Source of the DNA: an uncultured virus (IMG/VR IMGVR_UViG_3300020595_000014)
Taxonomy: Duplodnaviria > Heunggongvirae > Uroviricota > Caudoviricetes
Reading direction: 5' to 3' (one strand)
Virus record (IMG/VR): IMGVR_UViG_3300020595_000014
Length of the DNA stretch: 20,000 bases
A program made the translations under genes and the position numbers. The stretch's first letter is position 1, and each line of letters starts with the position of its first letter. Positions 3,425 through 19,463 of this stretch are shown here, piece after piece. Under the pieces are notes generated by a model. It was not told the DNA's origin. It ran no database searches and saw only the letters and a program-made list of their open reading frames with translations.

Positions 3425-3428
3425 TTGA

Positions 3429-4226
3429 CTACAGTTGATTTATCCAATCAAAGCTCTGTTTTATCTGCTCTGAGAACTCCTTACCTAAGACGTTATGCCA
3501 ATCTGGCTTTAACGGCTTGACCACGTTACGGATCTTATGCTCACCGTAAGGCCAACCAAGTTCATGTTCATCTGTATACTGTTCTACGTTTAGCGGATTG
3601 ACCTCAAACCTATCCATTTCTAGATAATCCCAGACTGCATTCATTGCTTCGACAGGATTGGCGGTGAGATCCTCTGCATGGACAAAGTGTAGTTTATCTT
3701 TATGTGTTTTTATTGCATCATGCAATCTCTCTACTGCAATACCAAGTGGTGGAGTATTGAGCCATCCCTGCGACCTCTTCTCAATGGTTGTCCAGTTCTG
3801 TGGATTCTGCTTTTCAATACCAACAAATCTTGACGGGTGCTTCATTCTTAGCTTCTCAAAACTAGAAAGAATGCCTCTTACATCTCTAACTGGCACTAAT
3901 ACTTTAGCATCTGGAAATACTTTATACAATTGATCCAAATGACCAATCCATGATCTGCACTTATCAACAACTACTGGTCTATCTGTGTCGCCATCAAATG
4001 CGCTTTTAATACCACCTCTAAGGAAATTGTGGTATTGTCTTTCACCATCTAGTGGGTTTTTAAATGTTTTAAATTCCTCTGTTTCAAAAAAGTCTCTAGC
4101 AATATATCCTATTTCATGAACACCAGATGTAGCAGTTGCATGTACCTCAGGGTTTTGTGCTAATAGATTTTGAAGAAGAGTAGAGCATGCTCTAGGAAGA
4201 CCAGATGTGAAATGAACTGTTTTCAT
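3429..4226 (-). CDS. Sulfotransferase family protein
   Basis: 5'-PSB loop SGLPRACSTLL, DKCRSW, 3'-PB motif VRDVRGILSS and a C-terminal AEDL...P..AM..VWDYL pattern. Confidence 0.85.
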   Translation of the reverse strand: MKTVHFTSGLPRACSTLLQNLLAQNPEVHATATSGVHEIGYIARDFFETEEFKTFKNPLDGERQYHNFLRGGIKSAFDGDTDRPVVVDKCRSWIGHLDQLYKVFPDAKVLVPVRDVRGILSSFEKLRMKHPSRFVGIEKQNPQNWTTIEKRSQGWLNTPPLGIAVERLHDAIKTHKDKLHFVHAEDLTANPVEAMNAVWDYLEMDRFEVNPLNVEQYTDEHELGWPYGEHKIRNVVKPLKPDWHNVLGKEFSEQIKQSFDWINQL

Positions 4227-4269: not shown

Positions 4270-5349
4270 TTATGGTATGTTAGGGTAGTTTGCCCAATCT
4301 ATTACGGTTACTCCAGATTTACCGCCAACTGTTTGACCAGCGCCTAATGTCCAGCCATTGGCTACTGCGTCATTAGCATAGACTGTGGTTAATCCAGAGT
4401 TGTTAAATGCATCACTACCAACGTTTGCTAGTGGCGGCGCTAGATATGCTGTAGTTAAGCCAGAGCAATTATAAAAAGCATAAGTCCCAATACTCGTAAC
4501 ACTATTTGGAATCACTAAACTAGTAAAGCCAGAGCAACTATCAAACGCATAATTTCCAATAGTAGTAACACTATCTGGAATCACTAAATCACCAGTAAAG
4601 CCAGAGCAATCATTAAAAGCATACTGTCCGATAATCGTAACACTATTTGGAATGACTAATGAACCAGTTAAGCCAGTGCAAAAATCAAAAGCATAACTCC
4701 CAATAACCTCTACTGTATTAGGTATACTTAATTCACCCACAACCCCACTTGCCTCAAATGGACCATAAACGGAGTCGATTGCACCAAGGTTAACAACACT
4801 TCCTAAATCTAAAGTAAACTGTGATCCCTGTGTATCGTAAAATATTGGACCATAAATATTCTTACAACTATCCAACAAAGTAACACTCTCTATACTACCA
4901 CAGGCTTCAAACGCACCATACCCATCTGCTGGATCACCGAGGGTCTCCATTTCTATAGTTATATCAGTGATATTTGTACCATAAAAGGCACCTACGCCAA
5001 GGGACAGGGTACTAGGCAGAAATATGCTGCCGGTTATAGGTGTATCAACAAAGGCATAATCCCCTATACTCGTTAAAGTAGAGGGCAGGGGATTAATAGG
5101 ACCGAGCTCAGTAAGGCTGCTATTATAACCAAAGGCGTAACTACCTATACTTGTGCATGATGTTCCAATCTGTAATTGTTTAATGTCACTTTCCTTCTTC
5201 CAATCATCAGGTATATCTCCCTGCACTTGACCAATCTCACCATTCGTTGTGCTACTCCAAACAATCGTAGGTGTTTTAAACTCCTGCTCATCTTGGAGGG
5301 TGAGTTCTACTACATTGTTGGTAATTTGTCCTTTGTATGTTTTGCTCAT
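4270..5349 (-). CDS. BspA-like leucine-rich repeat (LRR_5) protein, putative adhesin/receptor-binding protein
   Basis: Repeats such as LVIPNSVTIIGQYAFNDCSGFTG and LVIPDSVTTIGNYAFDSCSG. Lies in the virion gene cluster. Confidence 0.85.
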   Translation of the reverse strand: MSKTYKGQITNNVVELTLQDEQEFKTPTIVWSSTTNGEIGQVQGDIPDDWKKESDIKQLQIGTSCTSIGSYAFGYNSSLTELGPINPLPSTLTSIGDYAFVDTPITGSIFLPSTLSLGVGAFYGTNITDITIEMETLGDPADGYGAFEACGSIESVTLLDSCKNIYGPIFYDTQGSQFTLDLGSVVNLGAIDSVYGPFEASGVVGELSIPNTVEVIGSYAFDFCTGLTGSLVIPNSVTIIGQYAFNDCSGFTGDLVIPDSVTTIGNYAFDSCSGFTSLVIPNSVTSIGTYAFYNCSGLTTAYLAPPLANVGSDAFNNSGLTTVYANDAVANGWTLGAGQTVGGKSGVTVIDWANYPNIP

Positions 5350-10632: not shown

Positions 10633-10707
10633 CCCATAATTATATTAGAGTTCCTGTTGATAGCTAGTATATCTTTTGCCTATACGGGAACACCGGTATA
10701 ATAATGT

Positions 10708-11049
10708 ATGAGCAAACAAAAGCCAAGCCATATGGATGAGCTGACCTTGCAATTATTTGACGAGGTTAAGATTAAACCGGACTTATACCCAGGCTATGCT
10801 ACAGGCGATGCCTCTGTACAGCATAGCTATTTCATCATTAAGAAATACGACGTTGAGTTAGGAGGGCATACAGTACCGTTCGTGGATATTCTTAGACACT
10901 CAGAGCAAGAAGAGATTGATTTGCACAACCAAGCATGGCAATATGTTATGGCAATGCCGCGGTGGACTAAGCCTTTTATACTTTCTTTCCCAGCTGAGAG
11001 TGTGCGTCGTGTGCCGACCCTTACCGTCCGGTTGAACAAACTCGACTAG
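10708..11049 (+). CDS. Hypothetical protein
   Basis: 113-aa ORF starting 5 nt after the element at 10687. Confidence 0.75.
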   Translation: MSKQKPSHMDELTLQLFDEVKIKPDLYPGYATGDASVQHSYFIIKKYDVELGGHTVPFVDILRHSEQEEIDLHNQAWQYVMAMPRWTKPFILSFPAESVRRVPTLTVRLNKLD

Positions 11050-11053
11050 AACA

Positions 11054-11191
11054 ATGAAGCTCACAACAATAATAGCAATAGGCGCTAGTGTAGCAGTTGT
11101 CTTGAATGGTATTGGCGCCACAGATCAAATATTCGAGTTCATAGTCAATTTATTACACCTTCACACTTTATCCCAGATAACGCCGCCATGA
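11054..11191 (+). CDS. Small hydrophobic hypothetical protein, 45 aa (not in ORF track)
   Basis: MKLTTIIAIGASVAVVLNGIG...TPP*. ATGA overlap with the next ORF. Confidence 0.5.
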   Translation: MKLTTIIAIGASVAVVLNGIGATDQIFEFIVNLLHLHTLSQITPP

Positions 11192-11397
11192 TATTAAATA
11201 TACAAGTGGAACCGCATAATAATCACTTTAAATCAGAAGAGGATTGGAGCGCGCCAGTAGTCAACCGGATTATTCCTAGAGAGAAGAGAACACTAAGGAA
11301 GGCATGCGTTACAGCTCTCGGGGTAGTCTTCTATATAACACTCGTAGTAGGCAGCATCTTAGGAGCAATAATAACTATAACAAGCAATCGCGATTAA
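11188..11397 (+). CDS. Small membrane protein
   Basis: C-terminal TM segment (ACVTALGVVFYITLVVGSILGAIITI). Translationally coupled to its neighbours. Confidence 0.6.
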   Translation: MILNIQVEPHNNHFKSEEDWSAPVVNRIIPREKRTLRKACVTALGVVFYITLVVGSILGAIITITSNRD

Positions 11398-11399
11398 TC

Positions 11400-11585
11400 A
11401 TGAAGCCTATAGGAGAGTTGACACAACAGAATATATCTGACCGGTTAGAGTGCCTTGAGTGGTACCTGAAATATTATAAGAAACAGAACACTGAACTAGT
11501 GCATGCGTATGAAGAGTCGCAAGTAAAGATGGTTAAGGTTCTAGAGTCAATTGAGATGTATGAGAGCATGCAAGAACAAACCTGA
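11400..11585 (+). CDS. Hypothetical coiled-coil protein, paralog of 13885-14064
   Basis: Start reassigned to ATG 11400 (MKPIGEL). Shares RLExLExxLKYxK...EES with 13885-14064. Confidence 0.7.
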   Translation: MKPIGELTQQNISDRLECLEWYLKYYKKQNTELVHAYEESQVKMVKVLESIEMYESMQEQT

Positions 11586-11590
11586 CGATA

Positions 11591-11755
11591 ATGTATACCG
11601 TTGAAGTAAAACATGATGGAAAGTGGAAGGAAGTAGACTCCGGAGAGTCATACCGGAATGTTAGGTTTACGGTAGATCTGTTTGTTGAGGCATTCGATAC
11701 GGACAGGGTACGCGTGAGGGCACCAGATGGGAGCTATATAGAGCTAGAGAAATAA
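11591..11755 (+). CDS. Hypothetical protein, 54 aa (not in ORF track)
   Basis: MYTVEVKHDGKWKEVDSGESY...RVRAPDGSYIELEK*. Stops 1 nt before the element at 11757. Confidence 0.65.
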   Translation: MYTVEVKHDGKWKEVDSGESYRNVRFTVDLFVEAFDTDRVRVRAPDGSYIELEK

Positions 11756-11778
11756 CGGAACACTGATATAATAACAGT

Positions 11779-11928
11779 ATGAAACCAGAAGAAAGAATGC
11801 AAGCATGGAAATCAATCAAAGGAGCTAAGCCAACATGGGAGGAATTCAAGCGCTTACTATCAGCTAGCGAGTACGATGTAGAGAAAGCCTTAAAGAAATG
11901 GAAGAAGAAACATCCGTTCCTGAAGTAA
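11779..11928 (+). CDS. Small basic hypothetical protein, 49 aa (not in ORF track)
   Basis: MKPEERMQAWKSIKGAKPTWEEFKRLL...KKKHPFLK*. ATG is 6 nt after TATAAT. Confidence 0.7.
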   Translation: MKPEERMQAWKSIKGAKPTWEEFKRLLSASEYDVEKALKKWKKKHPFLK

Positions 11929-12186
11929 TATCATAAGAAGATATAAGAAAACATATAAGGATAATATAAAAAGACACAAAATTCCTGTATAGTTACTATA
12001 TAACACTATGATAAAGAGACAATAGAGAATCTAAGAGAGAACATAGAAGAGACGGGAACTTCCGGAGAGAAGAGCTTTTACGAAATAGCTAAATGCAAAG
12101 GGAACACGATCGAAATAAGCGAATACAATTGTTCTAGAATCGAAATAGTCTGAGACCAATGAGAGACAATCTATCTGCACAGTTTA

Positions 12187-12236
12187 AAGCTATATCTGCC
12201 TAGGTGGAGGGCTTTGCTAAGCTATATCTGCCTAGG
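12187..12236. repeat. 18-bp direct repeat AAGCTATATCTGCCTAGG, two copies
   Basis: Copies at 12187-12204 and 12219-12236 in a non-coding stretch. Confidence 0.85.
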
Positions 12237-12374
12237 CGCTGCGGTTGAACTAGATAATATAAACGTGTGGAGATTATTACCTCGACTATATATCTCCCCG
12301 GGGCTCTGAGCTCTGCACCTCGGAATGCTACGCGCTTAGAGAGATGGGAACACTATTATAATAAGTAATAGCAT

Positions 12375-12602
12375 ATGAATAAAGGACCATTTGAATCAAA
12401 GAAGTTTACAGCCCTGATCTCTGGGATTGTCTTTAATGCTATTTTCGCAGGCCTCTCATTGTACTTCATTGCAGGTAATCCAGAGTCTGCTGTATCTATA
12501 GTAAACCTTATGACGGTATCATTAGCCTCTGTTAATGGTCTCATCTCTCTATATGCCATCGGCCAATCTGCGGTCGACTGGAAGATCAATACACCGAAGT
12601 AA
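12375..12602 (+). CDS. Two-TM membrane protein (holin-like)
   Basis: ESKKF, then two hydrophobic helices, then YAIGQSAVDWK. Confidence 0.65.
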   Translation: MNKGPFESKKFTALISGIVFNAIFAGLSLYFIAGNPESAVSIVNLMTVSLASVNGLISLYAIGQSAVDWKINTPK

Positions 12603-12606
12603 CTAC

Positions 12607-12765
12607 ATGAAGAAGAAGAACGCCATTAGGCTCGAGCTATGCCAGCTGATATCAGACGGGCTACTGGATAAGGACCTGGTACTGCTAGAGTTAATTTCTA
12701 GAACACCTCCTGGTAAGATTAGGGAACTAATCGAGATACTCAGACCATCAGAAGTGGTTGAGTAG
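12607..12765 (+). CDS. Hypothetical protein
   Basis: Start reassigned to ATG 12607 (MKKKNAIRLEL...), 4 nt after the upstream stop. Confidence 0.6.
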   Translation: MKKKNAIRLELCQLISDGLLDKDLVLLELISRTPPGKIRELIEILRPSEVVE

Positions 12766-12992
12766 AGGGAACTATTCTCATTATACTTTAGTTCCTATAC
12801 ACACAAAAAGGGAACTACTTTATAAAAAAAGAGTTCTCCCCAGACCTATAGTCTCATTGTTAGTCAGCTTGTCTGTAGGTCATACCCTCCCTACATCTAT
12901 ATTATATCGGTGTTCCTCTTTAGTGTAATTTGTACACTATACATCAAAGCTCCGAAGCCTATTATAAAAGGAACACTAATATAATAAAGGTG

Positions 12993-13178
12993 ATGAAAGA
13001 GATAAAGAGATGGATAGTAGCATACGACGCCGATGGTGAGACAGATATCTGCAGACATATAATGGCTGAAACGAGAGAGGAAGCAGAGAAGGAGTTAGCT
13101 AATCAGGTTAATTTAGAATTCTGTACTAATGTAGAGATGTTCGAAGATACACTCGCTCCTACGTGGCAGGAACTGTAA
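12993..13178 (+). CDS. Acidic hypothetical protein
   Basis: Starts GTG-ATG after element 12970. Ends WQEL* inside the next element. Confidence 0.75.
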   Translation: MKEIKRWIVAYDADGETDICRHIMAETREEAEKELANQVNLEFCTNVEMFEDTLAPTWQEL

Positions 13179-13189
13179 TATAATTAGGT

Positions 13190-13351
13190 ATGTTAAAAGT
13201 ACTACTAGAGATGTTGGATCAAGTTGAAGCAGCTTGGAAGGCTGGCCACCTCACAAGAAGAGAGGCACAACGCGAGTGTGTGTGGATTGGTGCATGTATG
13301 GATGCTTATGAGCTTGAGCAACAGATCGCTGCGAACCCTCTGAGGGGCTAG
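13190..13351 (+). CDS. Hypothetical protein, 53 aa (not in ORF track)
   Basis: MLKVLLEMLDQVEAAWKAGHLTRREAQREC...PLRG*. Flanked by elements 13169 and 13356. Confidence 0.7.
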   Translation: MLKVLLEMLDQVEAAWKAGHLTRREAQRECVWIGACMDAYELEQQIAANPLRG

Positions 13352-13375
13352 TATAGGAACACTAATATAATAAAG

Positions 13376-13588
13376 GTGATGAAAGATAATAACCATAAAG
13401 TCAGTGATGAGGTCCACTATAACATCCCAGTTAAGGTCAGAGAGATTGTCAATGGGCACCTGTTGATAAATGAGAGGCTTCAGTGTCAGCACAACAGAGA
13501 GATACTAGATGAGATCATTGCTGATCTACAGCAGTATGCTTCTGAGTTACCATCAGTCTCTGATCTAGAAACCTGTAATGTCCTCTAG
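13376..13588 (+). CDS. Hypothetical protein
   Basis: GTG-ATG start after element 13356. Confidence 0.7.
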   Translation: MMKDNNHKVSDEVHYNIPVKVREIVNGHLLINERLQCQHNREILDEIIADLQQYASELPSVSDLETCNVL

Positions 13589-13589
13589 T

Positions 13590-13847
13590 ATGAATGTTAT
13601 TAAAAGAAGAACGAGATGCGCCTTAGATCTAATGAAGGAGGGCGGTCTAACATCTGATGGTGAGTTAGATACACATAACAACTATATGATGGAAGACCTT
13701 AAGGATAAGGTAGATGATCTAGATAACTGGCTCAATGGAACTGATGGTGGGTTTGATCAAGATAACTCTTTACATATGAACATGTTGGCTGATATTGTCA
13801 TGTGCTATGATAAGCTTGAAAGTATATGCGAGAGGGTAGTCCAATAG
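13590..13847 (+). CDS. Acidic hypothetical protein, paralog of 18186-18476
   Basis: Start probably ATG 13590. Shares Y..E.L..K...D.W...FD.DN..H....A...M..D.L..I.E with 18186-18476. Confidence 0.7.
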   Translation: MNVIKRRTRCALDLMKEGGLTSDGELDTHNNYMMEDLKDKVDDLDNWLNGTDGGFDQDNSLHMNMLADIVMCYDKLESICERVVQ

Positions 13848-13884
13848 TTGGACTACGAAAAAGTAACACTGATATAATATACAC

Positions 13885-14064
13885 ATGATAGATTACCAAC
13901 ATTACGTAGCTGAGCGGTTAGAGAGTCTAGAGTTAGACCTGAAGTACCATAAGATGAGAAGCACACACCTTGCGCGCAAGCTAGAAGAGAGTGAGGACAA
14001 GCTATCAGAGATCTTAAAAGAGATTCGCGACCTTAAGGTTAACTATAAACAGCCAGTACAGTAA
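13885..14064 (+). CDS. Coiled-coil hypothetical protein, 59 aa (not in ORF track), paralog of 11400-11585
   Basis: MIDYQHYVAERLESLELDLKYHKMRSTHLARKLEESEDKL... follows the variant element GTAAC-ACTGA-TATAAT. Confidence 0.7.
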   Translation: MIDYQHYVAERLESLELDLKYHKMRSTHLARKLEESEDKLSEILKEIRDLKVNYKQPVQ

Positions 14065-14065
14065 C

Positions 14066-14227
14066 ATGACTAACTACATCACATATACAACAGACGGTAG
14101 ATACTTCGTTATCGATAATACATCCCTGCAGCAAGACGGTATCCTTGCTCATGCTATTAAGTGCGAGTGTACGTCGAATTGGGACGCTCAGGAGATCGCA
14201 GATAGTCTTAACGGTGAAGTATTATAG
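14066..14227 (+). CDS. Hypothetical protein, 53 aa (not in ORF track)
   Basis: MTNYITYTTDGRYFVIDN...WDAQEIADSLNGEVL*. Starts 1 nt after the previous stop and ends just before element 14232. Confidence 0.65.
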   Translation: MTNYITYTTDGRYFVIDNTSLQQDGILAHAIKCECTSNWDAQEIADSLNGEVL

Positions 14228-14253
14228 AAAGGGAACACTTATATAATAATAGT

Positions 14254-14442
14254 ATGAGCAGTTGGATTTGGAAATTTGAGCAAGGTGATGAGGTCATTGT
14301 CGATGGTGAGCTTCTGTATGTAGAGAAGAAGGCTAAGAAGAAGTGGTACCTACCGCTAGCGCCAGACACCTGGTGGTGCTATAATGGCTACGGCGAGGAT
14401 CAATTAGTTAAAGAGAGTGACATGACGCATAAGGAACTCTGA
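14254..14442 (+). CDS. Small beta-rich (SH3/KOW-like pattern) hypothetical protein, paralog of 14737-14922
   Basis: Follows element 14232. GDEVIVDGELLYVE...W...GED...SD..HKEL*. Confidence 0.75.
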   Translation: MSSWIWKFEQGDEVIVDGELLYVEKKAKKKWYLPLAPDTWWCYNGYGEDQLVKESDMTHKEL

Positions 14443-14452
14443 TATAATAAAG

Positions 14453-14716
14453 GTGATGAAGACACAAACTATGACACCCACCACGCCTGCTAACATCTAC
14501 GACTTCAATGAAGAGGTTGTGAGCATTCCTTTAATCAGCCTGACCACACTAGTGAGTGGGCTTAAGCTGAGTGTTAAGTTCAATGAGGACTTTAAAGGAT
14601 GTGTAAAGACAGCTCGACATCTACTATCAACTCCTAAGGGCTATAGGACAGAAGACATCCTGCACCACCTGGAGACATCACTAGCTGACACTAAGGCACA
14701 CTATGGCATAGAGTAA
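14453..14716 (+). CDS. Hypothetical protein
   Basis: Bounded by elements 14433 and 14717. Confidence 0.75.
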   Translation: MMKTQTMTPTTPANIYDFNEEVVSIPLISLTTLVSGLKLSVKFNEDFKGCVKTARHLLSTPKGYRTEDILHHLETSLADTKAHYGIE

Positions 14717-14736
14717 GGAACTCTGATATAATTAAG

Positions 14737-14922
14737 GTGATGAAAAATAAAGATATAAAGAATGGTGACTTTGTTCTCTACACGCAAGGAGACAAGAGTG
14801 TCATCCTGTACGTAGAGTTCTACAATGAGAGTGACGACGTCTGGTTAGGAACAGACTCTGACGGGGAAGATTACTTCTTTCAAGCTAGCGATATTGACCC
14901 ATGTGACCATAAGGAACTCTGA
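14737..14922 (+). CDS. Small acidic beta-rich hypothetical protein, paralog of 14254-14442
   Basis: Bounded by elements 14717 and 14913. Ends HKEL*. Confidence 0.75.
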   Translation: MMKNKDIKNGDFVLYTQGDKSVILYVEFYNESDDVWLGTDSDGEDYFFQASDIDPCDHKEL

Positions 14923-14934
14923 TATAATAATAGT

Positions 14935-15225
14935 ATGATGAATATAAAACCGACAATTCGCGAGGTAAAGGTAATCCTTAACGCACTAGGAATCGATAGA
15001 GACGCAATCTCACACCATTGGAATGATACAAGAGTTCGGGGAGGGCGTATTAAGTTCTATTCTAGGAACAATATTGACAATGTCTTACCGAAACTAAATG
15101 ATCATTTAGTATCATTGTTCCCAGACTTTAAAGTCGAATCGACTAGTTATGGTAGGAACGTATATACAATTCACTTCAAGGAGATGGATGCAACGTTTGA
15201 CTTCTTCGGAGTCAACCCTTCTTAG
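14935..15225 (+). CDS. Hypothetical protein
   Basis: Bounded by elements 14913 and 15225. Confidence 0.75.
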   Translation: MMNIKPTIREVKVILNALGIDRDAISHHWNDTRVRGGRIKFYSRNNIDNVLPKLNDHLVSLFPDFKVESTSYGRNVYTIHFKEMDATFDFFGVNPS

Positions 15226-15246
15226 GAACCCCGATATAATAATAGC

Positions 15247-15486
15247 ATGAACAACAACGAGATGAAGAACATAACACTCTCCCGGATCACGTCCGTTCTA
15301 GATACAGTGAGCTGTAAACTAGTACTCCTAGAGGCACTCGATCGCGATCAGAGCGATAGTGGTTACGGTGATCTTATCGATCAGATAGCTACAATGCGAG
15401 CAGGTCTCGCTACTCTTCAAGGAGCTGTCTCACGAGCAGAATCAGTAGTACCATCAACTATTAGCAGCTCTAGACATCTCGTTTAA
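15247..15486 (+). CDS. Helical hypothetical protein
   Basis: Follows element 15225. Confidence 0.7.
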   Translation: MNNNEMKNITLSRITSVLDTVSCKLVLLEALDRDQSDSGYGDLIDQIATMRAGLATLQGAVSRAESVVPSTISSSRHLV

Positions 15487-15493
15487 ACACTCT

Positions 15494-15553
15494 CTCGAAG
15501 AATACTCTTCGAGCGCTACCGAGGAGTGCTCGTACAAAAAAACGAGCACTCCT
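15494..15553. terminator. Two adjacent perfect hairpins (possible terminator or processing signal)
   Basis: CTCGAAGA-ATAC-TCTTCGAG (15494-15513) and AGGAGTGCTCGT-8 nt-ACGAGCACTCCT (15522-15553). No clear U-tract. Confidence 0.45.
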
Positions 15554-15583
15554 TACATAAAGGAACACTGATATAATAATAAT

Positions 15584-15805
15584 ATGAACGCAAATAAAAA
15601 GCAAGTAAACGTCGAAAGCCGCACCCGTCAACCAAACCTATTCTCGGTTGTACTAGAGCGCGACCCATCCACCGGTGACTTCACCGTGGTAGGTCATCAA
15701 GCAAAGCGCCTGGTAATGAAGAATCAGTTTAAGGGTGACTGGGTAAAAGTAGCGCCGCGAGCCATCGCTAAGGCACTCCGCAATAACAAGATCAAAGCTG
15801 CATAG
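15584..15805 (+). CDS. Basic hypothetical protein
   Basis: Follows element 15562. Confidence 0.75.
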   Translation: MNANKKQVNVESRTRQPNLFSVVLERDPSTGDFTVVGHQAKRLVMKNQFKGDWVKVAPRAIAKALRNNKIKAA

Positions 15806-15823
15806 CACCTACGATTTTCATCA

Positions 15824-15850
15824 GTCCCTGGACATGGGCCTAAACTGTCC
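15824..15850 (+). ncRNA. Candidate H-type pseudoknot motif, copy 1
   Basis: GTCC-CT-GGACA-T-GGGC-CTAAAC-TGTCC. P1 is GUCC/GGGC and P2 is GGACA/UGUCC. Confidence 0.6.
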
Positions 15851-15881
15851 GATCTTTTACAGTTTGAAGAAGAATGATCTG

Positions 15882-15969
15882 TGGCCTGTGCGCCGAGCGG
15901 TCGAAGGCGCCGGACTCATAATCCGGGACGTAAGATACATCGTGGGTTCAAATCCCACCGGGCCGACCA
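15882..15969 (+). tRNA. tRNA with CAU anticodon (Met or Ile2) and a long variable arm
   Basis: Acceptor TGGCCTG/CGGGCCG plus A-CCA. Anticodon arm CCGGA-CTCATAA-TCCGG with CAT at 15917-15919. T arm GTGGG-TTCAAAT-CCCAC. Variable region 15 nt. Confidence 0.92.
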
Positions 15970-16004
15970 TTCTTCACAAATAGGAACACAGATATAATAA
16001 TAGT

Positions 16005-16184
16005 ATGGCCGACAGTATACAACTACAATCTTTAGAAGAGAGCTTAGCTCGAATGTTTGAGAAAGAACTCGACAAGCTACATACTATTATAGCTGAGCTT
16101 GAGAGCAACATCTCTACTACTATGTCGGAGGTAGAGAAACTTAAAGCAGCAGCTAATCGAGGTAATACGCCTTACGATTGGTAA
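16005..16184 (+). CDS. Coiled-coil hypothetical protein, 59 aa (not in ORF track)
   Basis: MADSIQLQSLEESLARMFEKELDKLH...TPYDW*. ATG is 6 nt after TATAAT of element 15983. Confidence 0.7.
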   Translation: MADSIQLQSLEESLARMFEKELDKLHTIIAELESNISTTMSEVEKLKAAANRGNTPYDW

Positions 16185-16315
16185 CCCTTTTCGATCGAGT
16201 GCGTCAAAGAACAACATGTCCTTATCACTACTAAATTAAGACGCCAGGCATAGCCTACGATCATCACATTGATCCCCGAGTATAATGTAAACTGGATCGT
16301 TAAACAAACTGCTCT

Positions 16316-16343
16316 AGGACCTTAGCATGTCTTTAAACTGCTA
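16316..16343 (+). ncRNA. Candidate H-type pseudoknot motif, copy 2
   Basis: AGGAC-CT-TAGCA-T-GTCTT-TAAAC-TGCTA. P1 is AGGAC/GUCUU and P2 is UAGCA/UGCUA. Confidence 0.6.
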
Positions 16344-16373
16344 CCACTTTCTAAGAACCCCGTCATAATAATA

Positions 16374-16499
16374 ATGAGACACGACCAAGATCCAATTGAA
16401 GAGATGATGCAATGGCTGCTGATGGGAGTCTGTATAGCGGCAGGGGGGCTAGCGCTAGCAGTATTTGTATGTATCGTACTACGTGCCATCATTAGTTAA
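16374..16499 (+). CDS. Small single-TM protein, 41 aa (not in ORF track)
   Basis: MRHDQDPIEEMMQWLLMGVCIAAGGLALAVFVCIVLRAIIS*. Follows the variant element at 16354. Confidence 0.6.
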   Translation: MRHDQDPIEEMMQWLLMGVCIAAGGLALAVFVCIVLRAIIS

Positions 16500-16506
16500 T
16501 AAAGAT

Positions 16507-16734
16507 ATGAGAAGTAAAAAGAAGACCAATTGGGAGTTCGTTATAACGTTGATGTGTATTGCCGCCCTAGGCTCTATGATGTGCTACGTAGGTAAGTACA
16601 TTGATATGCAGGCTCAACGAATCGACTATCTAGAGATCGAGAACCTTAAGCACAGCGAGGCACTACACATCCTACTACCTTCAGCCAGAGAGGAGGTTAA
16701 GGCTGGCGTTAGCTGGCACGATATGGAACCCTGA
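16507..16734 (+). CDS. Single-TM hypothetical protein
   Basis: Start reassigned to ATG 16507 (MRSKKKTNWEFVITLMCIAALG). Its stop TGA lies in element 16725. Confidence 0.65.
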   Translation: MRSKKKTNWEFVITLMCIAALGSMMCYVGKYIDMQAQRIDYLEIENLKHSEALHILLPSAREEVKAGVSWHDMEP

Positions 16735-16749
16735 TATAATATAGGTACG

Positions 16750-16947
16750 ATGAAGTTAAAAGGACCACTAAAGCTGGATAAGATATATGATGTTGATGGT
16801 ACGGATATGTATGGAGTACTGCTAGAGGATCATGGACTAGAGGAGGTAGTAGATGAGATGAATGTTCTGATGGATTACATTAGAGAGCTTAGTGGTAGGG
16901 TAGAGGAGCTTGAGTTTGCTTATGAGCGTGGAAGAGAGGAACTCTAA
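16750..16947 (+). CDS. Acidic hypothetical protein
   Basis: Bounded by elements 16725 and 16938. Ends REEL*. Confidence 0.75.
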   Translation: MKLKGPLKLDKIYDVDGTDMYGVLLEDHGLEEVVDEMNVLMDYIRELSGRVEELEFAYERGREEL

Positions 16948-16959
16948 TATAATAATAGT

Positions 16960-17043
16960 ATGACAATTATTGAATGGAGAGAGATGGTAGATGCAGGTCT
17001 TATTCAATTGGATGAGGATGGTAATGAAATAAAGGAACTCTGA
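16960..17043 (+). CDS. 27-aa acidic peptide (not in ORF track)
   Basis: MTIIEWREMVDAGLIQLDEDGNEIKEL* exactly fills the space between elements 16938 and 17034. Confidence 0.6.
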   Translation: MTIIEWREMVDAGLIQLDEDGNEIKEL

Positions 17044-17054
17044 TATAATTAGTT

Positions 17055-17309
17055 ATGATGAAAGTAAAAAATGTTATTGGATATAATGAAGTTGGGTTGG
17101 ATTATAAATTATGTGAAGAGATTTATGAGAATGGAAGTGGGAAAGATATTGAAGGAAGGTTTTTAGATGTTGAGTTTTTGAAGATTATTCTAGAAAGTAC
17201 TATTGAGTGGGTTGAAGAGAATAGTGAATATTGTTGGTGGAAAGACAAATGTGTAATAATGCTTAATAGTCTTGAGAAGTTTGATGATGAGGTGTTAGTA
17301 GAGTTTTAG
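17055..17309 (+). CDS. Acidic hypothetical protein, paralog of 17331-17600, C-poor gene
   Basis: Bounded by elements. Only 5 C in 255 nt by my count. Confidence 0.8.
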   Translation: MMKVKNVIGYNEVGLDYKLCEEIYENGSGKDIEGRFLDVEFLKIILESTIEWVEENSEYCWWKDKCVIMLNSLEKFDDEVLVEF

Positions 17310-17330
17310 GAACTCCAATATAATAATAGT

Positions 17331-17600
17331 ATGATGAAAGTAAAAGGTTATAAGGTAGTTGAGTTTGGCGATACAAATGTTGATTTTGATGTTTGTAGTT
17401 CTTTATATGATATGTGGTCAGGATTAGACTTAATAGGTCGAGTTGTTAAGGTAAGTTTTTGGAAGGAACAGATTACAGACTTTATAAAAGATATGAAGGA
17501 TGATGGAGATTATGATAGTAAGGATGATTGGACTATTAAAGTAGAGAAGGTATTAGAAGAAGTTAATAAGTTGGAAGAGGGTTTGTATATTCAATTTTAG
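17331..17600 (+). CDS. Acidic hypothetical protein, paralog of 17055-17309
   Basis: Shares MMKVK...D...C...Y...SG.D..GR...V.F.K with 17055-17309. Confidence 0.8.
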   Translation: MMKVKGYKVVEFGDTNVDFDVCSSLYDMWSGLDLIGRVVKVSFWKEQITDFIKDMKDDGDYDSKDDWTIKVEKVLEEVNKLEEGLYIQF

Positions 17601-17621
17601 GAACTCTAATATAATATAAGT

Positions 17622-17786
17622 ATGATGAATTATAAAAGTGTTTGTGAAAAATATGGAGATGAAGTTGGTTTAAAAGTACTAGACTTTATTGAAGAAGGTT
17701 GGGGCGAGAATGGAGCTGATGAGTTCAAATTTGATGATGGAAGTGTCTTTAAAGAGGTAGTTGAGGAATTTATTAAGGAACTCTAA
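17622..17786 (+). CDS. Acidic hypothetical protein, 54 aa (not in ORF track)
   Basis: MMNYKSVCEKYGDEVGLKVLDFIEEGW...VVEEFIKEL*. Bounded by elements 17600 and 17777. Confidence 0.7.
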   Translation: MMNYKSVCEKYGDEVGLKVLDFIEEGWGENGADEFKFDDGSVFKEVVEEFIKEL

Positions 17787-17798
17787 TATAATAATAGT

Positions 17799-17942
17799 AT
17801 GATGAAAGATATATTAGAAGTTGGTAAGAAGTATAGAGGTGAGTTGTTGAGAGTTGATTATGGATATGAGATTGATGATTGTGAAGATGATTGTTGGTTT
17901 TATATTCTAAAGGGTGGTGAGATTATTAAGGAGGAACTCTAA
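17799..17942 (+). CDS. Acidic hypothetical protein, 47 aa (not in ORF track)
   Basis: MMKDILEVGKKYRGELLRVDYGYEIDDCEDDCWFYILKGGEIIKEEL*. Bounded by elements 17777 and 17933. Confidence 0.7.
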   Translation: MMKDILEVGKKYRGELLRVDYGYEIDDCEDDCWFYILKGGEIIKEEL

Positions 17943-17954
17943 TATAATAATAGT

Positions 17955-18164
17955 ATGATGAATGATTGTTTAGGAAAAGAGCAGGACGAGTTGGTAGCAG
18001 CAATTGCCAAGAAGCATATGCATATTAAAACACTTAAGGAACAAAAGTCAGATAGTCTTGATTTTCATGATGTGAGTGTTTGGCGGCTTGAAGGCGCTCT
18101 TAAAGAGGCACTTCGAACTGGTATTGATATTGGTATTAAGATGACAGTAAATCATTTGAAGTAG
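17955..18164 (+). CDS. DUF6900-like protein
   Basis: IAKKHMHIKTLKEQKSDSLDFHDVSVW.L..AL..A...G matches the DUF6900 signature (SDSLDFHDVSVW) as I recall it. Confidence 0.75.
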   Translation: MMNDCLGKEQDELVAAIAKKHMHIKTLKEQKSDSLDFHDVSVWRLEGALKEALRTGIDIGIKMTVNHLK

Positions 18165-18185
18165 GAACTCTAATATAATAATAGT

Positions 18186-18476
18186 ATGATGAATATAACA
18201 TATAACAAACTAAGCAAGATTCGCGCAACAAGATACTTCAATGATATGGAGAGAGATGATAAGGAAACTGCTTTATTATATCTCGGAGAGGAACTTGTCC
18301 AGAAGATTAAGAGAATCGATTCATGGATGAGTGATGAGAAGGGATTTGAAGGAACTAAGTTTGATGTAGATAATAATAACCACTCTAGATTATTCGCTAA
18401 GTTAGATATGTTAAATGACGAGTTAATGGATATTATTGAGAAGGCTGGATTAGATCTAGTGGCAGAGATTCACTAA
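18186..18476 (+). CDS. Hypothetical protein, paralog of 13590-13847
   Basis: Follows element 18164. Shares the FD.DN..H motif. Confidence 0.75.
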   Translation: MMNITYNKLSKIRATRYFNDMERDDKETALLYLGEELVQKIKRIDSWMSDEKGFEGTKFDVDNNNHSRLFAKLDMLNDELMDIIEKAGLDLVAEIH

Positions 18477-18502
18477 CAGGAACACCAATATAATTAGTCA
18501 CG

Positions 18503-18838
18503 ATGAATATACAAGACCTAATCCAAGCACTAGAAGAAATCGCTGAGCAGTCACCTAACGCTGAAGTTCGATTTGCGAGTCAACCTAGCTATCCATTTGA
18601 GTACTCCATTGCAGAAGTAGTCCCATGGGATAAGCATACAATGATCGACAATGAGATTGAAGAGATCCGACAATCGATTGACGAAAATAATCAAGAGCCT
18701 ATGTCACATAAAGATATGAAGGCATTGGCTGAGCAGAATTTAGAAGACGAAGGAGTGCTCGAGGATGTGGTATATCTCGAAGAAGGTACACAGCTAGGCT
18801 ATCTCCCAGAAGGTCCAAGGCATGCCTTAGGCTGGTAA
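18503..18838 (+). CDS. Conserved-looking acidic hypothetical protein
   Basis: AEVRFASQPSYPFEYSI...VVYLEEGTQLGYLP...ALGW resembles a widespread uncharacterised phage/mobile-element family. Confidence 0.8.
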   Translation: MNIQDLIQALEEIAEQSPNAEVRFASQPSYPFEYSIAEVVPWDKHTMIDNEIEEIRQSIDENNQEPMSHKDMKALAEQNLEDEGVLEDVVYLEEGTQLGYLPEGPRHALGW

Positions 18839-18852
18839 AGATTTCATCATAA

Positions 18853-18879
18853 CACCTAGGTAAGTGCCTAAACTGCCTA
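18853..18879 (+). ncRNA. Candidate H-type pseudoknot motif, copy 3
   Basis: CAC-CT-AGGTA-A-GTG-CCTAAAC-TGCCT. P1 is CAC/GUG and P2 is AGGUA/UGCCU. Confidence 0.55.
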
Positions 18880-18909
18880 CTATATTAGGAACTCCGATAT
18901 AATAATAGT

Positions 18910-19227
18910 ATGATGAATAAGAACTATAAAATAATCCACACGATGAAGGTCCTAATCAAGACACAATACAAGGAGTGGTATGGTTGTGAAGACCATATAG
19001 GCGATGAAGCCTATGGTCGTTACAAGAACAAAGGAGGCATGGACTATGTCTTAGAGGTCGACGAGCATGTGTTTATGTATGATGAAGAGTCTGTTCGCAA
19101 GGCCTTCCATGATGTGTATGATGTACCTGGATCGTTCACTAGATGTACTATTGTCGATATCGAGCCCTGCTATAGAGAGCCAAGAGAGATTAAGCTAGAC
19201 ATTAAGAGTGATGCTCTAGTGCACTAG
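18910..19227 (+). CDS. Hypothetical protein (alternative start 18943)
   Basis: Bounded by elements 18888 and 19227. Contains I.TQY.E.YG...YKNKGG.DY. Confidence 0.75.
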   Translation: MMNKNYKIIHTMKVLIKTQYKEWYGCEDHIGDEAYGRYKNKGGMDYVLEVDEHVFMYDEESVRKAFHDVYDVPGSFTRCTIVDIEPCYREPREIKLDIKSDALVH

Positions 19228-19247
19228 GAACACTGATATAATAAGTT

Positions 19248-19463
19248 ATGGACAAAAGGATAAACTACCCATATGCATATGGGCGCTTGAGCTCTTCATT
19301 GAGTGGCTTCGCCCTAATGAAGAAGATGAAGGAGAAGGGCCTCGACCTAAAGAATTGGGACCTAGAATGCGCAATCCAGGAGTTGTTGGACCAGGCCCTA
19401 GATGACCTGAAGAAAGAAACTCATGATGCAGCTGCAGTAGAGCACGAGAAGTACGGATCATGA
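19248..19463 (+). CDS. Hypothetical protein
   Basis: Follows element 19227. N-terminus INYPYAYGRL. Confidence 0.75.
   Translation: MDKRINYPYAYGRLSSSLSGFALMKKMKEKGLDLKNWDLECAIQELLDQALDDLKKETHDAAAVEHEKYGS

Follow-up and report, generated by a model that had tools for sequence, protein, structure and literature searches.

Islands of nearly cytosine-free small genes behind promoter-like repeats in uncultured phages

Four consecutive small genes of an uncultured virus (IMG/VR record IMGVR_UViG_3300020595_000014) are almost devoid of cytosine on their coding strand. They occupy positions 17055-17942 of the 20,000-nt stretch of DNA analyzed here (the window), where a base count gives 32 C in 888 nt (3.6%), against 3943 in 20,000 (19.7%) for the whole window. 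The C bias exceeds both amino acid and codon nulls, and the trait belongs to a gene class rather than to a single family. The explanation that we favor, tentatively and at somewhat less than an even chance, is that selection keeps these messages C-free so that they can be made, or can survive, when C is vulnerable.

The cytosine-poor block and its genes

The C counts given for the four genes and for the block in an earlier note on this DNA, made by eye from the letters, were exact on recount, and G is abundant in the block (238/888, 26.8%), as was claimed there. The nearby cassette 15584-15805, put forward in the same note as having ordinary C content, does so (57/222, 25.7%). Together the four ORFs hold 27 C. 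Merging all sliding windows of 150 nt in which C does not exceed 5% gives a C-poor zone broader than the block, spanning 16943-18006, with 43 C in 1,064 nt; no 150-nt window that is comparably poor in A, G, or T (≤5%) occurs in the full 20 kb. The flanking genes are graded in C content, with 8.6% and 7.1% on one side (16750-16947 and 16960-17043) and 11.9% and 11.0% on the other (17955-18164 and 18186-18476). The features of the region are as follows, with genes of very low C content called C-less:

16750..16947, + strand, flanking gene, putatively early, of intermediate C content (8.6%)
16938..16967, + strand, junction repeat, promoter-like (GGAACTC..TATAAT..ATG), 3 mismatches
16960..17043, + strand, mini-ORF of 27 aa with its own junction repeat upstream, 7.1% C
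17034..17054, + strand, junction repeat before gene 1, GGAACTCTGATATAATTAGTT-ATG, read from the sequence
17055..17309, + strand, C-less gene 1 ("family A"), 84 aa, C 5/255 (2.0%)
17309..17338, + strand, junction repeat before gene 2, 1 mismatch
17331..17600, + strand, C-less gene 2, 89 aa, distant paralog of gene 1, C 11/270 (4.1%)
17600..17629, + strand, junction repeat before gene 3, 2 mismatches
17622..17786, + strand, C-less gene 3 ("family B"), 54 aa, C 8/165 (4.8%)
17777..17806, + strand, junction repeat before gene 4, overlapping the ..KEL-stop end of gene 3, exact
17799..17942, + strand, C-less gene 4, 47 aa, C 3/144 (2.1%)
17933..17962, + strand, junction repeat 3' of gene 4 and before the DUF6900 gene, exact
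17955..18164, + strand, flanking DUF6900 gene (Pfam PF21841, E=5.9e-19) of intermediate C content (11.9%)
18164..18193, + strand, junction repeat before gene 18186, exact
18186..18476, + strand, flanking gene, putatively early, of intermediate C content (11.0%)

Each C-less gene lies directly behind a repeat with the consensus GGAAC(T/A)C..(T/C)(G/A)ATATAAT-6 nt-ATG. The 30-nt repeat has eight copies in the window at ≤3 mismatches, where none is expected by chance, and between 10.7 and 19.3 kb, where ~35 small ORFs lie on the + strand, most have a looser form in front of them. With its TATAAT, in many cases following a TGn, the repeat resembles a sigma70-type early promoter; it has no -35 hexamer. 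The genes behind it would be expressed early, and the spacing between repeat and ATG indicates that the messages are probably leaderless, starting at the ATG itself. No terminator-like site was found within 16400-18600. The four ORFs fill the space between junction repeats, and arithmetic from base frequencies shows that a random frame of 84 codons would stay open about once in 10,000 at the composition of the block.

The codon choice in these genes cannot be attributed to the proteins that they encode. With the proteins held fixed and synonymous codons drawn according to the usage of 26 other putatively early genes, 94.3±6.8 C are expected against the 27 observed, and none of 20,000 simulations gave ≤27; the lowest count possible for the four fixed proteins is 7, and the per-gene z-scores for genes 1 to 4 are -5.0, -4.4, -1.9, and -3.3. 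This amino-acid-matched comparison had been proposed in the earlier note, and its result is that composition and codon usage do not explain the bias. Several of the note's further observations also stood: Ala, Pro, His, Gln, and Thr are nearly absent (7 of 270 codons in the block, vs. 21.4% of 1,873 codons in the 26 other genes), and the preference for TTR, AGT, and AGR codons holds for 15 of 22 Leu, 9 of 11 Ser, and 3 of 4 Arg in the four genes. Only 8 of the 117 NNY codons counted in the block are NNC. From normal to C-less genes, third-position frequencies change from.188 to.020 for C,.339 to.457 for T,.267 to.211 for A, and.206 to.311 for G, and the four valine codons move in parallel (GTC.13 to.01, GTT.35 to.48, GTA.36 to.20, GTG.16 to.31). 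All three codon positions are depleted alike, C falling from.167,.177, and.188 at positions 1, 2, and 3 to.023,.021, and.020.

At the residue level, C-less clusters are richer than normal ones in Glu (9.4% to 16.1%), Asp (7.2% to 10.7%), and Val (6.6% to 10.0%). The products are acidic, as had been noted for gene 17055 (20 D+E vs. 9 K+R), with 20/12, 15/6, and 13/7 in genes 2 to 4; this acidity partly follows from the rise of G-initial C-free codons. Homology searches gave little for these proteins: across 17 C-less proteins, Pfam and PHROGs returned nothing below E=0.002, and the ESM Atlas had no usable match. The AlphaFold2 model of the gene 17055 protein is confident (pLDDT 90.7). Searched with that model, Foldseek against the PDB found nothing at E≤0.001 (DMP12 appeared at E=3.1, probability 0.08), the BFVD likewise yielded nothing at E≤0.001, and in a VIA-wide comparison the best Z was 5.7, to an unrelated chain and within the noise range.

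C-less genes as a class in related phages

Gene 17055 has 14 homologs at 69-99% identity, and a more distant one at locus L054 (53% identity) is likewise C-less and sits inside a block of 840 nt that contains 28 C. A C-poor block, of 150-1,607 nt, is present at each of the 35 metagenome loci where family A occurs, and none of the 35 contains an A-, G-, or T-poor one; these loci were retrieved via family A, and the sample is therefore biased. The earlier note had proposed looking for the same bias in homologs; it is present there and also in unrelated neighbor genes of the relatives. Within family A, C remains at 2%-6% despite dS values of up to 0.5-0.9 between members, and dN/dS is 0.09-0.26 over the dS range 0.4-0.9. 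The family is under purifying selection, and these dN/dS values together with the confident model establish that the proteins are real. Gene 2 (17331, whose representative is P0015) aligns with the family-A member of L054 at 35% over 43 aa (BLASTP, E=4e-5), within A1. The homolog of gene 3 in L036 (89% identity, on the promoter strand) is C-poor too, at 5.5%. Of the flanking genes, homologs of gene 18186 have 10%-14% C whatever the context seen, and the DUF6900 homolog in L006 (62.5% identity), far from any C-poor block, has 23.8% C.

Five remote homologs of family A (P0030, P0034, P0025, P0031, and P0033) contain Ala, Pro, His, Gln, and Thr and have normal composition. In the conserved DI-A-GK motif, Ala is found in two remote homologs, and E, I, V, M, N, or Y in the C-less members. 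Because the remote homologs use these five residues, the reduced alphabet is not required by the family-A protein.

With a minimum length of 35 codons and <7% C as limits, 79 distinct C-less ORFs fall into 25 BLASTP clusters, ~20 of them promoter-led (that is, behind the promoter-like repeat). Among 361 promoter-led ORFs, weighted by cluster, 22 C-less clusters stand beside 194 normal ones. In an unbiased set derived from the motif, 14 of 188 promoter-led ORFs have 0%-6.5% C, with a median of 16.8% for the set, and no low tail like that of C is seen there for A, G, or T. C is absent altogether from 18 ORFs (150-399 nt) among 76 C-less ones; the pooled C content of 1.75% predicts, by arithmetic, about one. 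Residual C in C-less ORFs stands in ACA, GCT, and ACT contexts. C-less genes of unrelated families are contiguous in every case, forming what we call islands, and the identical promoter sequence also fronts neighbor genes with 11%-12% or normal C. At L054, the C-poor zone begins at the promoter right behind the end of a C-rich gene and ends at the ATG of the next gene. Inside islands, C is at 5.9% in 32 spacers (77/1306) vs. 1.75% in ORFs (301/17193), and the spacer C is located in the GGAACTC motif and in stem-loops; C is thus retained where a signal requires it. Stem-loops of this kind occur in island spacers of some relatives, for example L056, L083, L084, and L091.

Gene content and island length (150-1,607 nt) vary among the 35 loci, and the units are shuffled as modules: in the public variant P0003, gene 17799 follows gene 17055 immediately, and in P0014 gene 17055 is joined to one resembling 17331. 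The setting, ORFans in a shuffling array of promoter cassettes, is typical of accessory host-takeover genes. It resembles the PeSL (promoter-early stem-loop) cassettes of the hyperplastic regions of T4-type phages (Arbiol et al. 2010, PMC2839356), likewise many small, non-essential ORFan genes, each behind a repeated strong promoter-type element. Here too, units at the repeats have been gained, lost, or replaced between relatives. Unlike PeSLs, which are described as promoter plus terminator stem-loop, the repeat in the window abuts the ATG and has no stem-loop, and some units are without C, a compositional rule that the PeSL account does not include.

The lineage is one of uncultured marine phages, and those relatives with enough sequence appear T4-like. 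The one complete genome among the relatives, of 184,542 bp (G001), encodes the T4 core proteins Gp23, gp32, gp44 lid, PolB, prohead protease, sheath, and gp25. It has C-poor blocks only at 2793-3337 and 3401-4098, within an array of 48 promoter motifs, and about four of its ~48 promoter-led genes are C-less; its four island promoters are themselves without C (GGAAAGTT/GGAAAATT). In two of five records searched (G007 and G008), one contig carries both Gp23 and a C-less block. No T4 core gene lies within the window, which shares with G001-G004 just the motif and one 94-aa gene (41%-44% identity), and with G004 also one cassette gene. For the Gp23 of G001, the closest cultured phages are cyanophages, at only ~34% identity; window proteins have weak tblastn matches to cyanophage and Pseudanabaena phage records (26%-28% and 54%), which do not name the host. 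Positions 16400-19000 had no blastn match among 50,697 phage records, and the exact 30-mer repeat had no match in IMG/VR. Other candidates for C-less sequence were rejected. In G001, the G-poor positions 4744-4926, which might have been the complement of a C-less gene, form a divergent regulatory region rich in AT; in G002-G004, additional short stretches poor in C or G belong to larger genes, to non-coding DNA, or to Gly-rich repeat proteins.

The island is covered by contigs of four marine metatranscriptome runs, in which DNA carry-over is possible. In run X4 the word depth is higher over 17005-18006, a measure that cannot rank genes, and some metatranscriptome joints fall at the repeats (17063>17625, 17634>17931), with short sides and possibly as effects of assembly.

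Selection on messages and its alternatives

We propose that a C-less island would be a contiguous, exchangeable set of small early genes, each behind a promoter-like repeat, in which selection at the nucleic acid level would keep the sense strand and the mRNA nearly or wholly C-free. C would be removed by synonymous choice (NNT for NNC, TTR, AGR, AGT) and by exclusion of Ala, Pro, His, Gln, and Thr, and the benefit would be fail-safe expression of first-responder host-takeover or counter-defense proteins when C is the weak letter. In its most general form, in which early genes are written in three letters (A, G, and U) so that their messages require no CTP and present no cytosine to factors of the host, the proposal is possible but doubtful; such messages could still be expressed in a cell where C is starved, poisoned, or attacked. 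We infer both that selection, not mutation bias, is the cause and what its benefit might be. Of the three candidate mechanisms put forward in the earlier note, transcripts proof against CTP depletion, ddhCTP, or RNases remain the best class of explanation.

Within that class, an escape from C-dependent host factors that bind or cut RNA (Rho; MazF/ChpBK/MqsR-type RNases) is rather unlikely as the specific benefit. Rho loads on C-rich RNA, and the sites of MazF/ChpBK/MqsR-type RNases contain C. Against an RNase, the residual C shows no visible motif avoidance in its ACA, GCT, and ACT contexts, and known toxins relevant to T4, ToxN among them, cleave at sites without C; with a putative promoter for each short gene, little effect of Rho polarity is expected, and an excess of G over C alone would probably suffice against Rho. 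A touch less likely still is that transcription of these messages can run to the end when CTP is scarce or absent, or when a C-analog chain terminator such as ddhCTP is present. Strict CTP-free synthesis would fail in the window, since its C-less genes retain 3-11 C each (in two of them, the codon preceding the stop holds two). Among 145 G001 ORFs of at least 120 aa, none matched a phage RNA polymerase family in Pfam (E≤1e-5), so these phages presumably use the host polymerase, which argues against this variant; a search of four records with PF00940 (T7-type polymerase) gave no match, but its control was likewise without any match. In published work, viperin activity was assayed on T7, a phage with its own polymerase, and host-polymerase-dependent phages are said to dominate. 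No CTP-depleting defense was found in a search of the published literature, and the CARF-HAD phosphatase is reported to show no activity on CTP. A literature search on cytosine-free phage genes, or on viperin together with cytosine content, found nothing relevant. The rest of the weight that we give to selection falls to some other RNA-level reason.

Several observations speak against selection generally and are what a mutational origin predicts: unrelated C-less families are always contiguous, the flanks of the window are graded (8.6%/7.1% on one side, 11.9%/11.0% on the other), at 12% C, the DUF6900 gene that adjoins the island is poorer in C than its homolog elsewhere (23.8%), and synonymous sites lose C and A and gain T and G, the signature of single-strand deamination. 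The sense strand might lie single-stranded unusually long (in transcription, R-loops, or replication) or be hit by a deaminase, so that C>T and A>G changes accumulate. Strand asymmetry from single-strand deamination is familiar from vertebrate mitochondrial DNA and from transcription-associated C>T change, and the islands resemble it in the direction of their silent-site shifts; however, known asymmetry is gradual and genome- or replichore-wide, whereas an island reaches 0%-2% C in single genes and has its borders at gene ends. Several further findings lead us to consider a mutational origin improbable. Genes beside an island with the same promoter sequence hold 11%-20% C, family g18503 stays at 16.4% even where it adjoins a block (L077), both L054 borders fall on gene borders, and C persists in island stem-loops and in the GGAACTC motif. 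Codon positions 1, 2, and 3 are equally depleted despite a dN/dS of about 0.1-0.2, and there are 18 zero-C ORFs of up to 399 nt vs. ~1 predicted in 76. A rough estimate from general deamination rates puts the C>T rate required for a C:T equilibrium of ~1:20-1:100 far beyond that attainable if the strand is single-stranded for minutes per infection. Of the neutral deamination alternative raised in the earlier note, then, the direction of the synonymous shift fits, and the normal-C neighbors behind the same promoter, the zero-C ORFs, and the equal depletion of codon positions do not. Parsimony over 21 family-A genes counts 10 third-position T>C changes on terminal and 2 on internal branches, vs. 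42 and 38 for A<>G, a pattern equally expected from fast C>T reversion, so that it does not separate selection from mutation.

A C-free sense strand is also a G-free template, on which the polymerase would never meet G, 7-deazaguanine, or 8-oxoG; that the template is what matters we regard as quite unlikely. Genes for 7-deazaguanine precursors do occur in the T4-like G001-G004 (FolE, PTPS/QueD, QueE-like, QueC, QueF, and an amidotransferase in G001, parts of the set in the others), and the C-free island promoters of G001 would fit. However, the window itself has no 7-deazaguanine genes, only ~4 of the ~48 promoter-led G001 genes are C-less, and 7-deaza-G is generally read well by polymerases. 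DpdA, the enzyme that inserts 7-deazaguanine into DNA, was not found, as TGT family PF01702, in any of five related records searched, with a control positive in 14 of 14 genomes; a very divergent DpdA might still be present. Neither PHROG nor PDB matches were found for the ORF that separates QueC from the amidotransferase (L061:5510-6550), and the homologs of this ORF are unnamed. With DpdA not found and this ORF unmatched, the pathway may serve tRNA queuosine. The product of the ORF, a Lys/Glu-rich protein of unknown family, gave no indication of a transglycosylase function. An R-loop element, for example a transcript-primed origin like T4 oriF/oriG in which a G>C skew is selected to stabilize the RNA-DNA hybrid, would be compatible with the GC skew of +0.65 to +0.80 just 3' of the promoter-like repeats, the single island in the complete genome G001, and the increase of G at synonymous sites. 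We nevertheless hold it very unlikely: T4 origins use promoter-driven R-loops and comprise ~100 bp with an A+T-rich unwinding element (PMC3016281), as against 0.6-1.6 kb of coding sequence in islands. Most of the lost C was replaced by T, so that the hybrid would contain weak rU:dA pairs; the ORFs evolve under purifying selection; and the cumulative GC skew of G001 tracks the orientation of its genes, without an origin-like turning point where the island lies. Runs of GGG, the seeds of R-loops, are rarer than in shuffled sequence (7 vs. 18.2±4.6 in the window, 17 vs. 41.1±6.7 in L085, and 31 vs. 43.2±7.0 in G001).

The other idea raised in the earlier note, that a C-free strand lacks G/C palindromes and so escapes most type II restriction sites, with acidic products acting as Ocr/Arn-like mimics, we find scarcely credible. 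Its shortage of palindromes is real, with 6 four-base and 3 six-base G/C palindromes in the 888-nt block vs. 49 and 15 in an equal-length control, yet this is an automatic result of composition; AT-richness would do the same without sacrificing five amino acids, and the ~1 kb protected is a small part of a ~150-200 kb genome in which a cut elsewhere is still lethal. The products are indeed acidic (D+E vs. K+R 20/9, 20/12, 15/6, 13/7), but in part this comes with the G-initial C-free codons, and the mimic idea is unsupported, the gene 17055 model having no significant structural match in the PDB (DMP12 only at E=3.1), BFVD, or VIA, although a mimic might lack such a match.

Known systems and significance

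Published descriptions of one-letter-poor gene islands such as these C-less early genes were searched for, and none was found. Among the first-expressed anti-defense genes of lytic phages are T7 gene 0.3/Ocr, T4 Arn/Dmd, and the T5 pre-early genes; to our knowledge, none of these has been described as devoid of any one nucleotide. The island genes are like them in encoding small, often acidic, putatively early proteins in variable regions and unlike them in lacking one nucleotide, and no relation in sequence or fold was found. Messages without one nucleotide have been made artificially. The synthetic G-less cassette of Sawadogo and Roeder for in vitro transcription reportedly yields RNA without G; like an island unit, it is without one nucleotide, and it is transcribable without that NTP, stopping at the first occurrence. 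That cassette is artificial and non-coding, whereas the island units are natural, protein-coding, and without C, and for them NTP supply is a candidate reason only. In the single-protein-production system of Suzuki and Inouye, ACA-less mRNAs are said to survive MazF, so that recoding protects a message from a sequence-specific mRNA interferase, and this is its likeness to the C-less genes; it removes one triplet by design, whereas the island avoids every C, and its residual C stands in ACA as often as elsewhere.

If the C-free state is selected, it would be a new kind of genomic information, a rule on which letters are permitted in a message, that overrides codon preference and amino acid choice (with five amino acids given up) in defined early genes. 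It would point to an unrecognized single-nucleotide-dependent vulnerability of transcription or mRNA in marine bacteria, with CTP supply, C-analog chain terminators, and C-dependent RNases or Rho as candidates, and to a passive, cis-encoded route by which phages get around it. Composition alone would then flag candidate counter-defense genes in uncultured phages, and natural C-less genes would serve as ready constructs for comparing native with C-restored forms. If the state is instead mutational, it would be the most extreme local strand-specific mutation pressure known to us in a DNA phage.

A further point in favor of selection on the messages is that the C-less ones fold more weakly, at -0.11 to -0.18 kcal/mol/nt vs. 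-0.18 to -0.27 for the remaining genes of the window for which folding was computed (-0.21 to -0.27 where C is 16% or more).

Cytosine depletion in four neighbouring genes

Four consecutive small genes of the window are almost free of cytosine on the sense strand:

17055-17309, + strand, gene of family A, 5 C in 255 nt
17331-17600, + strand, C-less gene, 11 C in 270 nt
17622-17786, + strand, gene of family B, 8 C in 165 nt
17799-17942, + strand, C-less gene, 3 C in 144 nt

The hand counts of an earlier note on this DNA were exact, as was its pooled value of 32 C in 888 nt (3.6%); G makes up 26.8% of this block, and C 19.7% of the window. Merging 150-nt windows in which C is 5% or less delimits 16943-18006 (43 C in 1,064 nt), and at this window size no A-, G- or T-poor stretch of comparable depth occurs anywhere in the window. 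Genes flanking the block are intermediate in C (8.6% and 7.1% upstream, 11.9% and 11.0% downstream), with 16-26% farther out. When the four protein sequences were fixed and synonymous codons taken from a set of 26 further early genes in the window, 94.3±6.8 C were expected against 27 observed and a possible minimum of 7; none of 20,000 draws was as low, and the z-scores of the genes, in order, were -5.0, -4.4, -1.9 and -3.3. Ala, Pro, His, Gln and Thr account for 7 of the 270 codons, vs 21.4% in other early genes. Because the bias strikes synonymous sites and amino-acid choice alike, composition plus ordinary codon usage, the explanation that the earlier note thought would dispose of it, does not account for the loss of C.

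The left half of the window holds phage genes (846-7599: a full-length GroEL of 542 aa, a sulfotransferase, and three BspA-type leucine-rich-repeat proteins beside a DUF4376 tail-fibre-like gene). From 10.7 kb on, about 35 small ORFs follow one another on the + strand, most of them behind a conserved unit, GGAAC(A/T)C..(T/C)(G/A)ATATAAT, six bases and ATG. The 30-nt unit recurs eight times in the window at up to three mismatches, where chance predicts no copy; about 25 copies of GGAACnCnnATATAAT-6 nt-ATG abut start codons at 10700-19300 (+), and no Shine-Dalgarno sequence is visible at those ORFs. The unit carries a perfect -10 hexamer, often with the extended -10 TG, and lacks a -35 hexamer; a scan of 16400-18600 gave no terminator-like sites. 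Since the start codon lies at the transcript start expected of the -10, the genes read as leaderless, and this spacing suggests one-promoter units; promoter activity and early expression, like the leaderless state, we infer from sequence alone. The GGAACTC of the following unit runs into the 3' end of many of the small ORFs, which for this reason terminate in ..KEL-stop. Assembled RNA-library contigs depart from the window sequence at 14500-14744 and around 15892-15959, which points to strain variants in which cassettes outside the C-less island have been exchanged.

Among published arrangements, the array comes closest to the PeSL promoter cassettes that T4-type phages carry, as described in the abstract of PMC2839356, and it is a variant of this known kind. 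Our literature searches turned up no account of phage genes that lack one nucleotide, and three-letter coding of a subset of cassette genes is without known precedent.

A class of C-less genes across related loci

A degenerate form of the unit identified 53 stretches, examined at up to 6 kb each, on 34 IMG/VR contigs. Seven contigs (loci L001, L016, L031, L036, L038, L040 and L043/44) carry C-poor blocks on the promoter strand, and two more are marginal. This motif-derived set, made up of the window and L001-L055, has 188 distinct promoter-led ORFs; 14 of them contain 0-6.5% C, and the others mostly have 8-26%, with one at 30%, few in between and a median of 16.8%, and none of the other three nucleotides has such a low tail among the 188. 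BLASTP groups the 79 distinct ORFs that have at least 35 codons and less than 7% C, counted over all loci, into 25 clusters, of which about 20 are promoter-led. The sole links within the first C-less set were between gene 17055 and L054 (53%), gene 17331 and the family-A member of L054 (weak), and gene 17622 and L036 (89%). C-lessness is a property of a gene class, not of a single family.

The 76 retained C-less ORFs hold 301 C in 17,193 nt (1.75%), and 18 of them, 150-399 nt long, have none. Some of these ORFs are second genes that follow a Shine-Dalgarno site and have a C-poor spacer (for instance L038 2179-2562, 1 C in 384 nt). The three codon positions share the stray C about equally (96/110/95); with cluster weighting, C at positions 1/2/3 drops from.167/.177/.188 to.023/.021/.020, and no avoided sequence context is apparent around the residual C of the 76 ORFs. 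Island spacers (32 distinct) contain 5.9% C (77/1306) vs 1.75% in the ORFs; the spacer C is found at the GGAACTC positions and in G-C stem-loops downstream of stop codons, with none between the -10 hexamer and ATG. Such stem-loops, for instance GGAGTTCC-GAAA-GGAAC and GGCAGCAG..CTGCTGCC, separate some C-less genes of relatives (L054 6246-6290; L056 3352-3431; L083 430-505); they hold most of the C of those islands and are PeSL-like terminators or processing sites. In a tally of 351 promoter-gene units from the window and all loci, a sample that is not independent, TA or CA precedes ATATAAT in 41 of 62 C-less genes, which thus lack the extended -10 G, and TG, CG or AG in 190 of 289 normal genes; this could reflect a separate promoter class or shared cassette descent.

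Homologues share the bias at every locus recovered by a family-alignment scan: all 35 metagenome loci have a C-poor block (150 to 1,607 nt) over the family-A gene, and 0 of 35 an A-, G- or T-poor one. These loci were picked via family A and are a biased sample of phages; their neighbour genes are independent families. The protein of gene 17055 has 14 relatives at 69-99% identity, likewise poor in the five amino acids, and its 53%-identity relative sits within an 840-nt block holding 28 C that starts at the promoter right behind a C-rich gene end and ends at the ATG of the next gene. Among family-A members C stays at 2-6% despite dS of 0.4-0.9, and dN/dS is 0.09-0.26; the AF2 model of the 17055 protein (pLDDT 90.7) has a beta-alpha-beta-alpha-alpha-beta order. 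Family-A proteins are real. A profile search of 1.8 billion representatives returned 22 relatives, of which the distant P0030, P0034, P0025, P0031 and P0033 have ordinary composition, and the DI-A-GK motif has Ala in two distant relatives and E, I, V, M, N or Y in C-less members. Hence all five missing amino acids are compatible with the fold, and the restriction to fewer amino acids is imposed from outside the protein.

Public gene calls for three relatives (P0003, P0013, P0014) translate the TAG that ends gene 17055 as Q and join the gene to the next cassette, which looks like a gene-caller artefact, an alternative code having been chosen for C-poor, TAG-ending sequence. Within gene 17055, another frame holds a C-free 31-codon ORF (17071-17166, +) with a counterpart at L054 6026-6109 (48% over 25 aa), probably a by-product of the conserved gene that it overlaps.

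Selection, mutation and the proposed benefit of C-free messages

Strand-specific mutation, in which single-strand deamination empties the sense strand of C, ranks second among our readings and seems improbable. Silent-site shifts have its direction (T3.339 to.457, G3.206 to.311, A3.267 to.211), G gains in five of six NNR pairs, the C-less genes form contiguous islands, C is graded in the window's flanks, and one gene family has 12% C adjoining an island vs 23.8% elsewhere. However, neighbours with the identical promoter keep 11-20% C, C-poor borders coincide with gene ends, constrained and silent positions are equally depleted despite strong purifying selection, zero-C ORFs are far commoner than a uniform 1.75% predicts, and C is retained wherever a signal requires it. 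By parsimony over 21 family-A genes, new third-position C arose on 10 terminal and 2 internal branches vs 42 and 38 for A<>G, a picture that fast reversion would also give. An R-loop or G-quadruplex element is unlikely: GGG runs are fewer than in shuffles of the window (7 vs 18.2±4.6), most lost C turned into T, and T4 R-loop origins are ~100 bp and A+T-rich (PMC3016281). Restriction-site avoidance, proposed in the earlier note, does follow as an automatic by-product, but covers only ~1 kb. A G-free template strand, which would spare the polymerase modified G, has one point in its favour, the preQ1-synthesis genes of the related records G001-G004; however, the TGT/DpdA transglycosylase that would insert the base into DNA was found in 0 of 5 related records, with a working control.

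With the R-loop, restriction and template readings set aside, the message itself is left as the candidate cause, and our leading reading, tentative and a little short of an even chance, is that C-free messages were selected for fail-safe early expression. This confidence divides roughly evenly between a nucleotide-supply version, in which such RNA would need no CTP and could not incorporate a C-analogue terminator, and a version in which it would present no cytosine either to RNases with C-containing sites or to Rho, a factor that loads onto C-rich RNA. C-less messages are ~40% less folded. Against nucleotide supply, no own polymerase is apparent in G001, the viperin study we draw on was done with T7 and remarks on the predominance of phages that use the host polymerase, we found no CTP-depleting defence in the literature, and the C-less genes of the window retain 3-11 C, some right before the stop codon. 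Against RNases and Rho, no motif is visibly avoided, and Rho should do little harm to short genes that each have a promoter.

T4-like relatives

G001 is a complete record of 184,542 bp whose coordinates have no physical meaning, because the 127-bp 'terminal repeat' in it appears to be an overlap left by assembly. Its only C-poor blocks, 2793-3337 and 3401-4098 (four genes), lie within an array of 48 + strand promoter motifs, and the phage is T4-like, encoding Gp23, prohead protease, gp32, clamp loader, PolB, UvsX-type RecA, sheath and gp25. Gp23 is also on the contigs of L031 and L038, both carrying C-less genes. The phage of the window is probably T4-like, although no T4 core gene occurs within the window and it has few other features in common with G001-G004; no cultured relative was found (best Gp23 identity ~34%).

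The preQ1 genes of G001-G004 are FolE, QueD, QueE-like, QueC, QueF and an amidotransferase (L058, L059 and L061 in G001). The pathway may raise tRNA queuosine, which reads NAU codons; the AT-rich phage genes use NAU codons, the C-less genes exclusively. G001 also encodes DUF1501, PSCyt2/PSD1, a Tad3 Thoeris inhibitor, and PNKP with RNA ligase 1, a tRNA-repair pair (L061 7983-9242, 14864-16651 and 16660-17895; L064 19481-19933 and 17475-18365; L065 12886-14061). These are hints of host and counter-defence load, DUF1501 and PSCyt2/PSD1 being families that we take to be typical of Planctomycetes and Verrucomicrobia. In G002, two adjacent genes (92853-93416, -) encode Gly-rich GDG/GYG repeat proteins at ~9% C and 31% G, and this low C stems from amino-acid repeats and is distinct from the C-less island.
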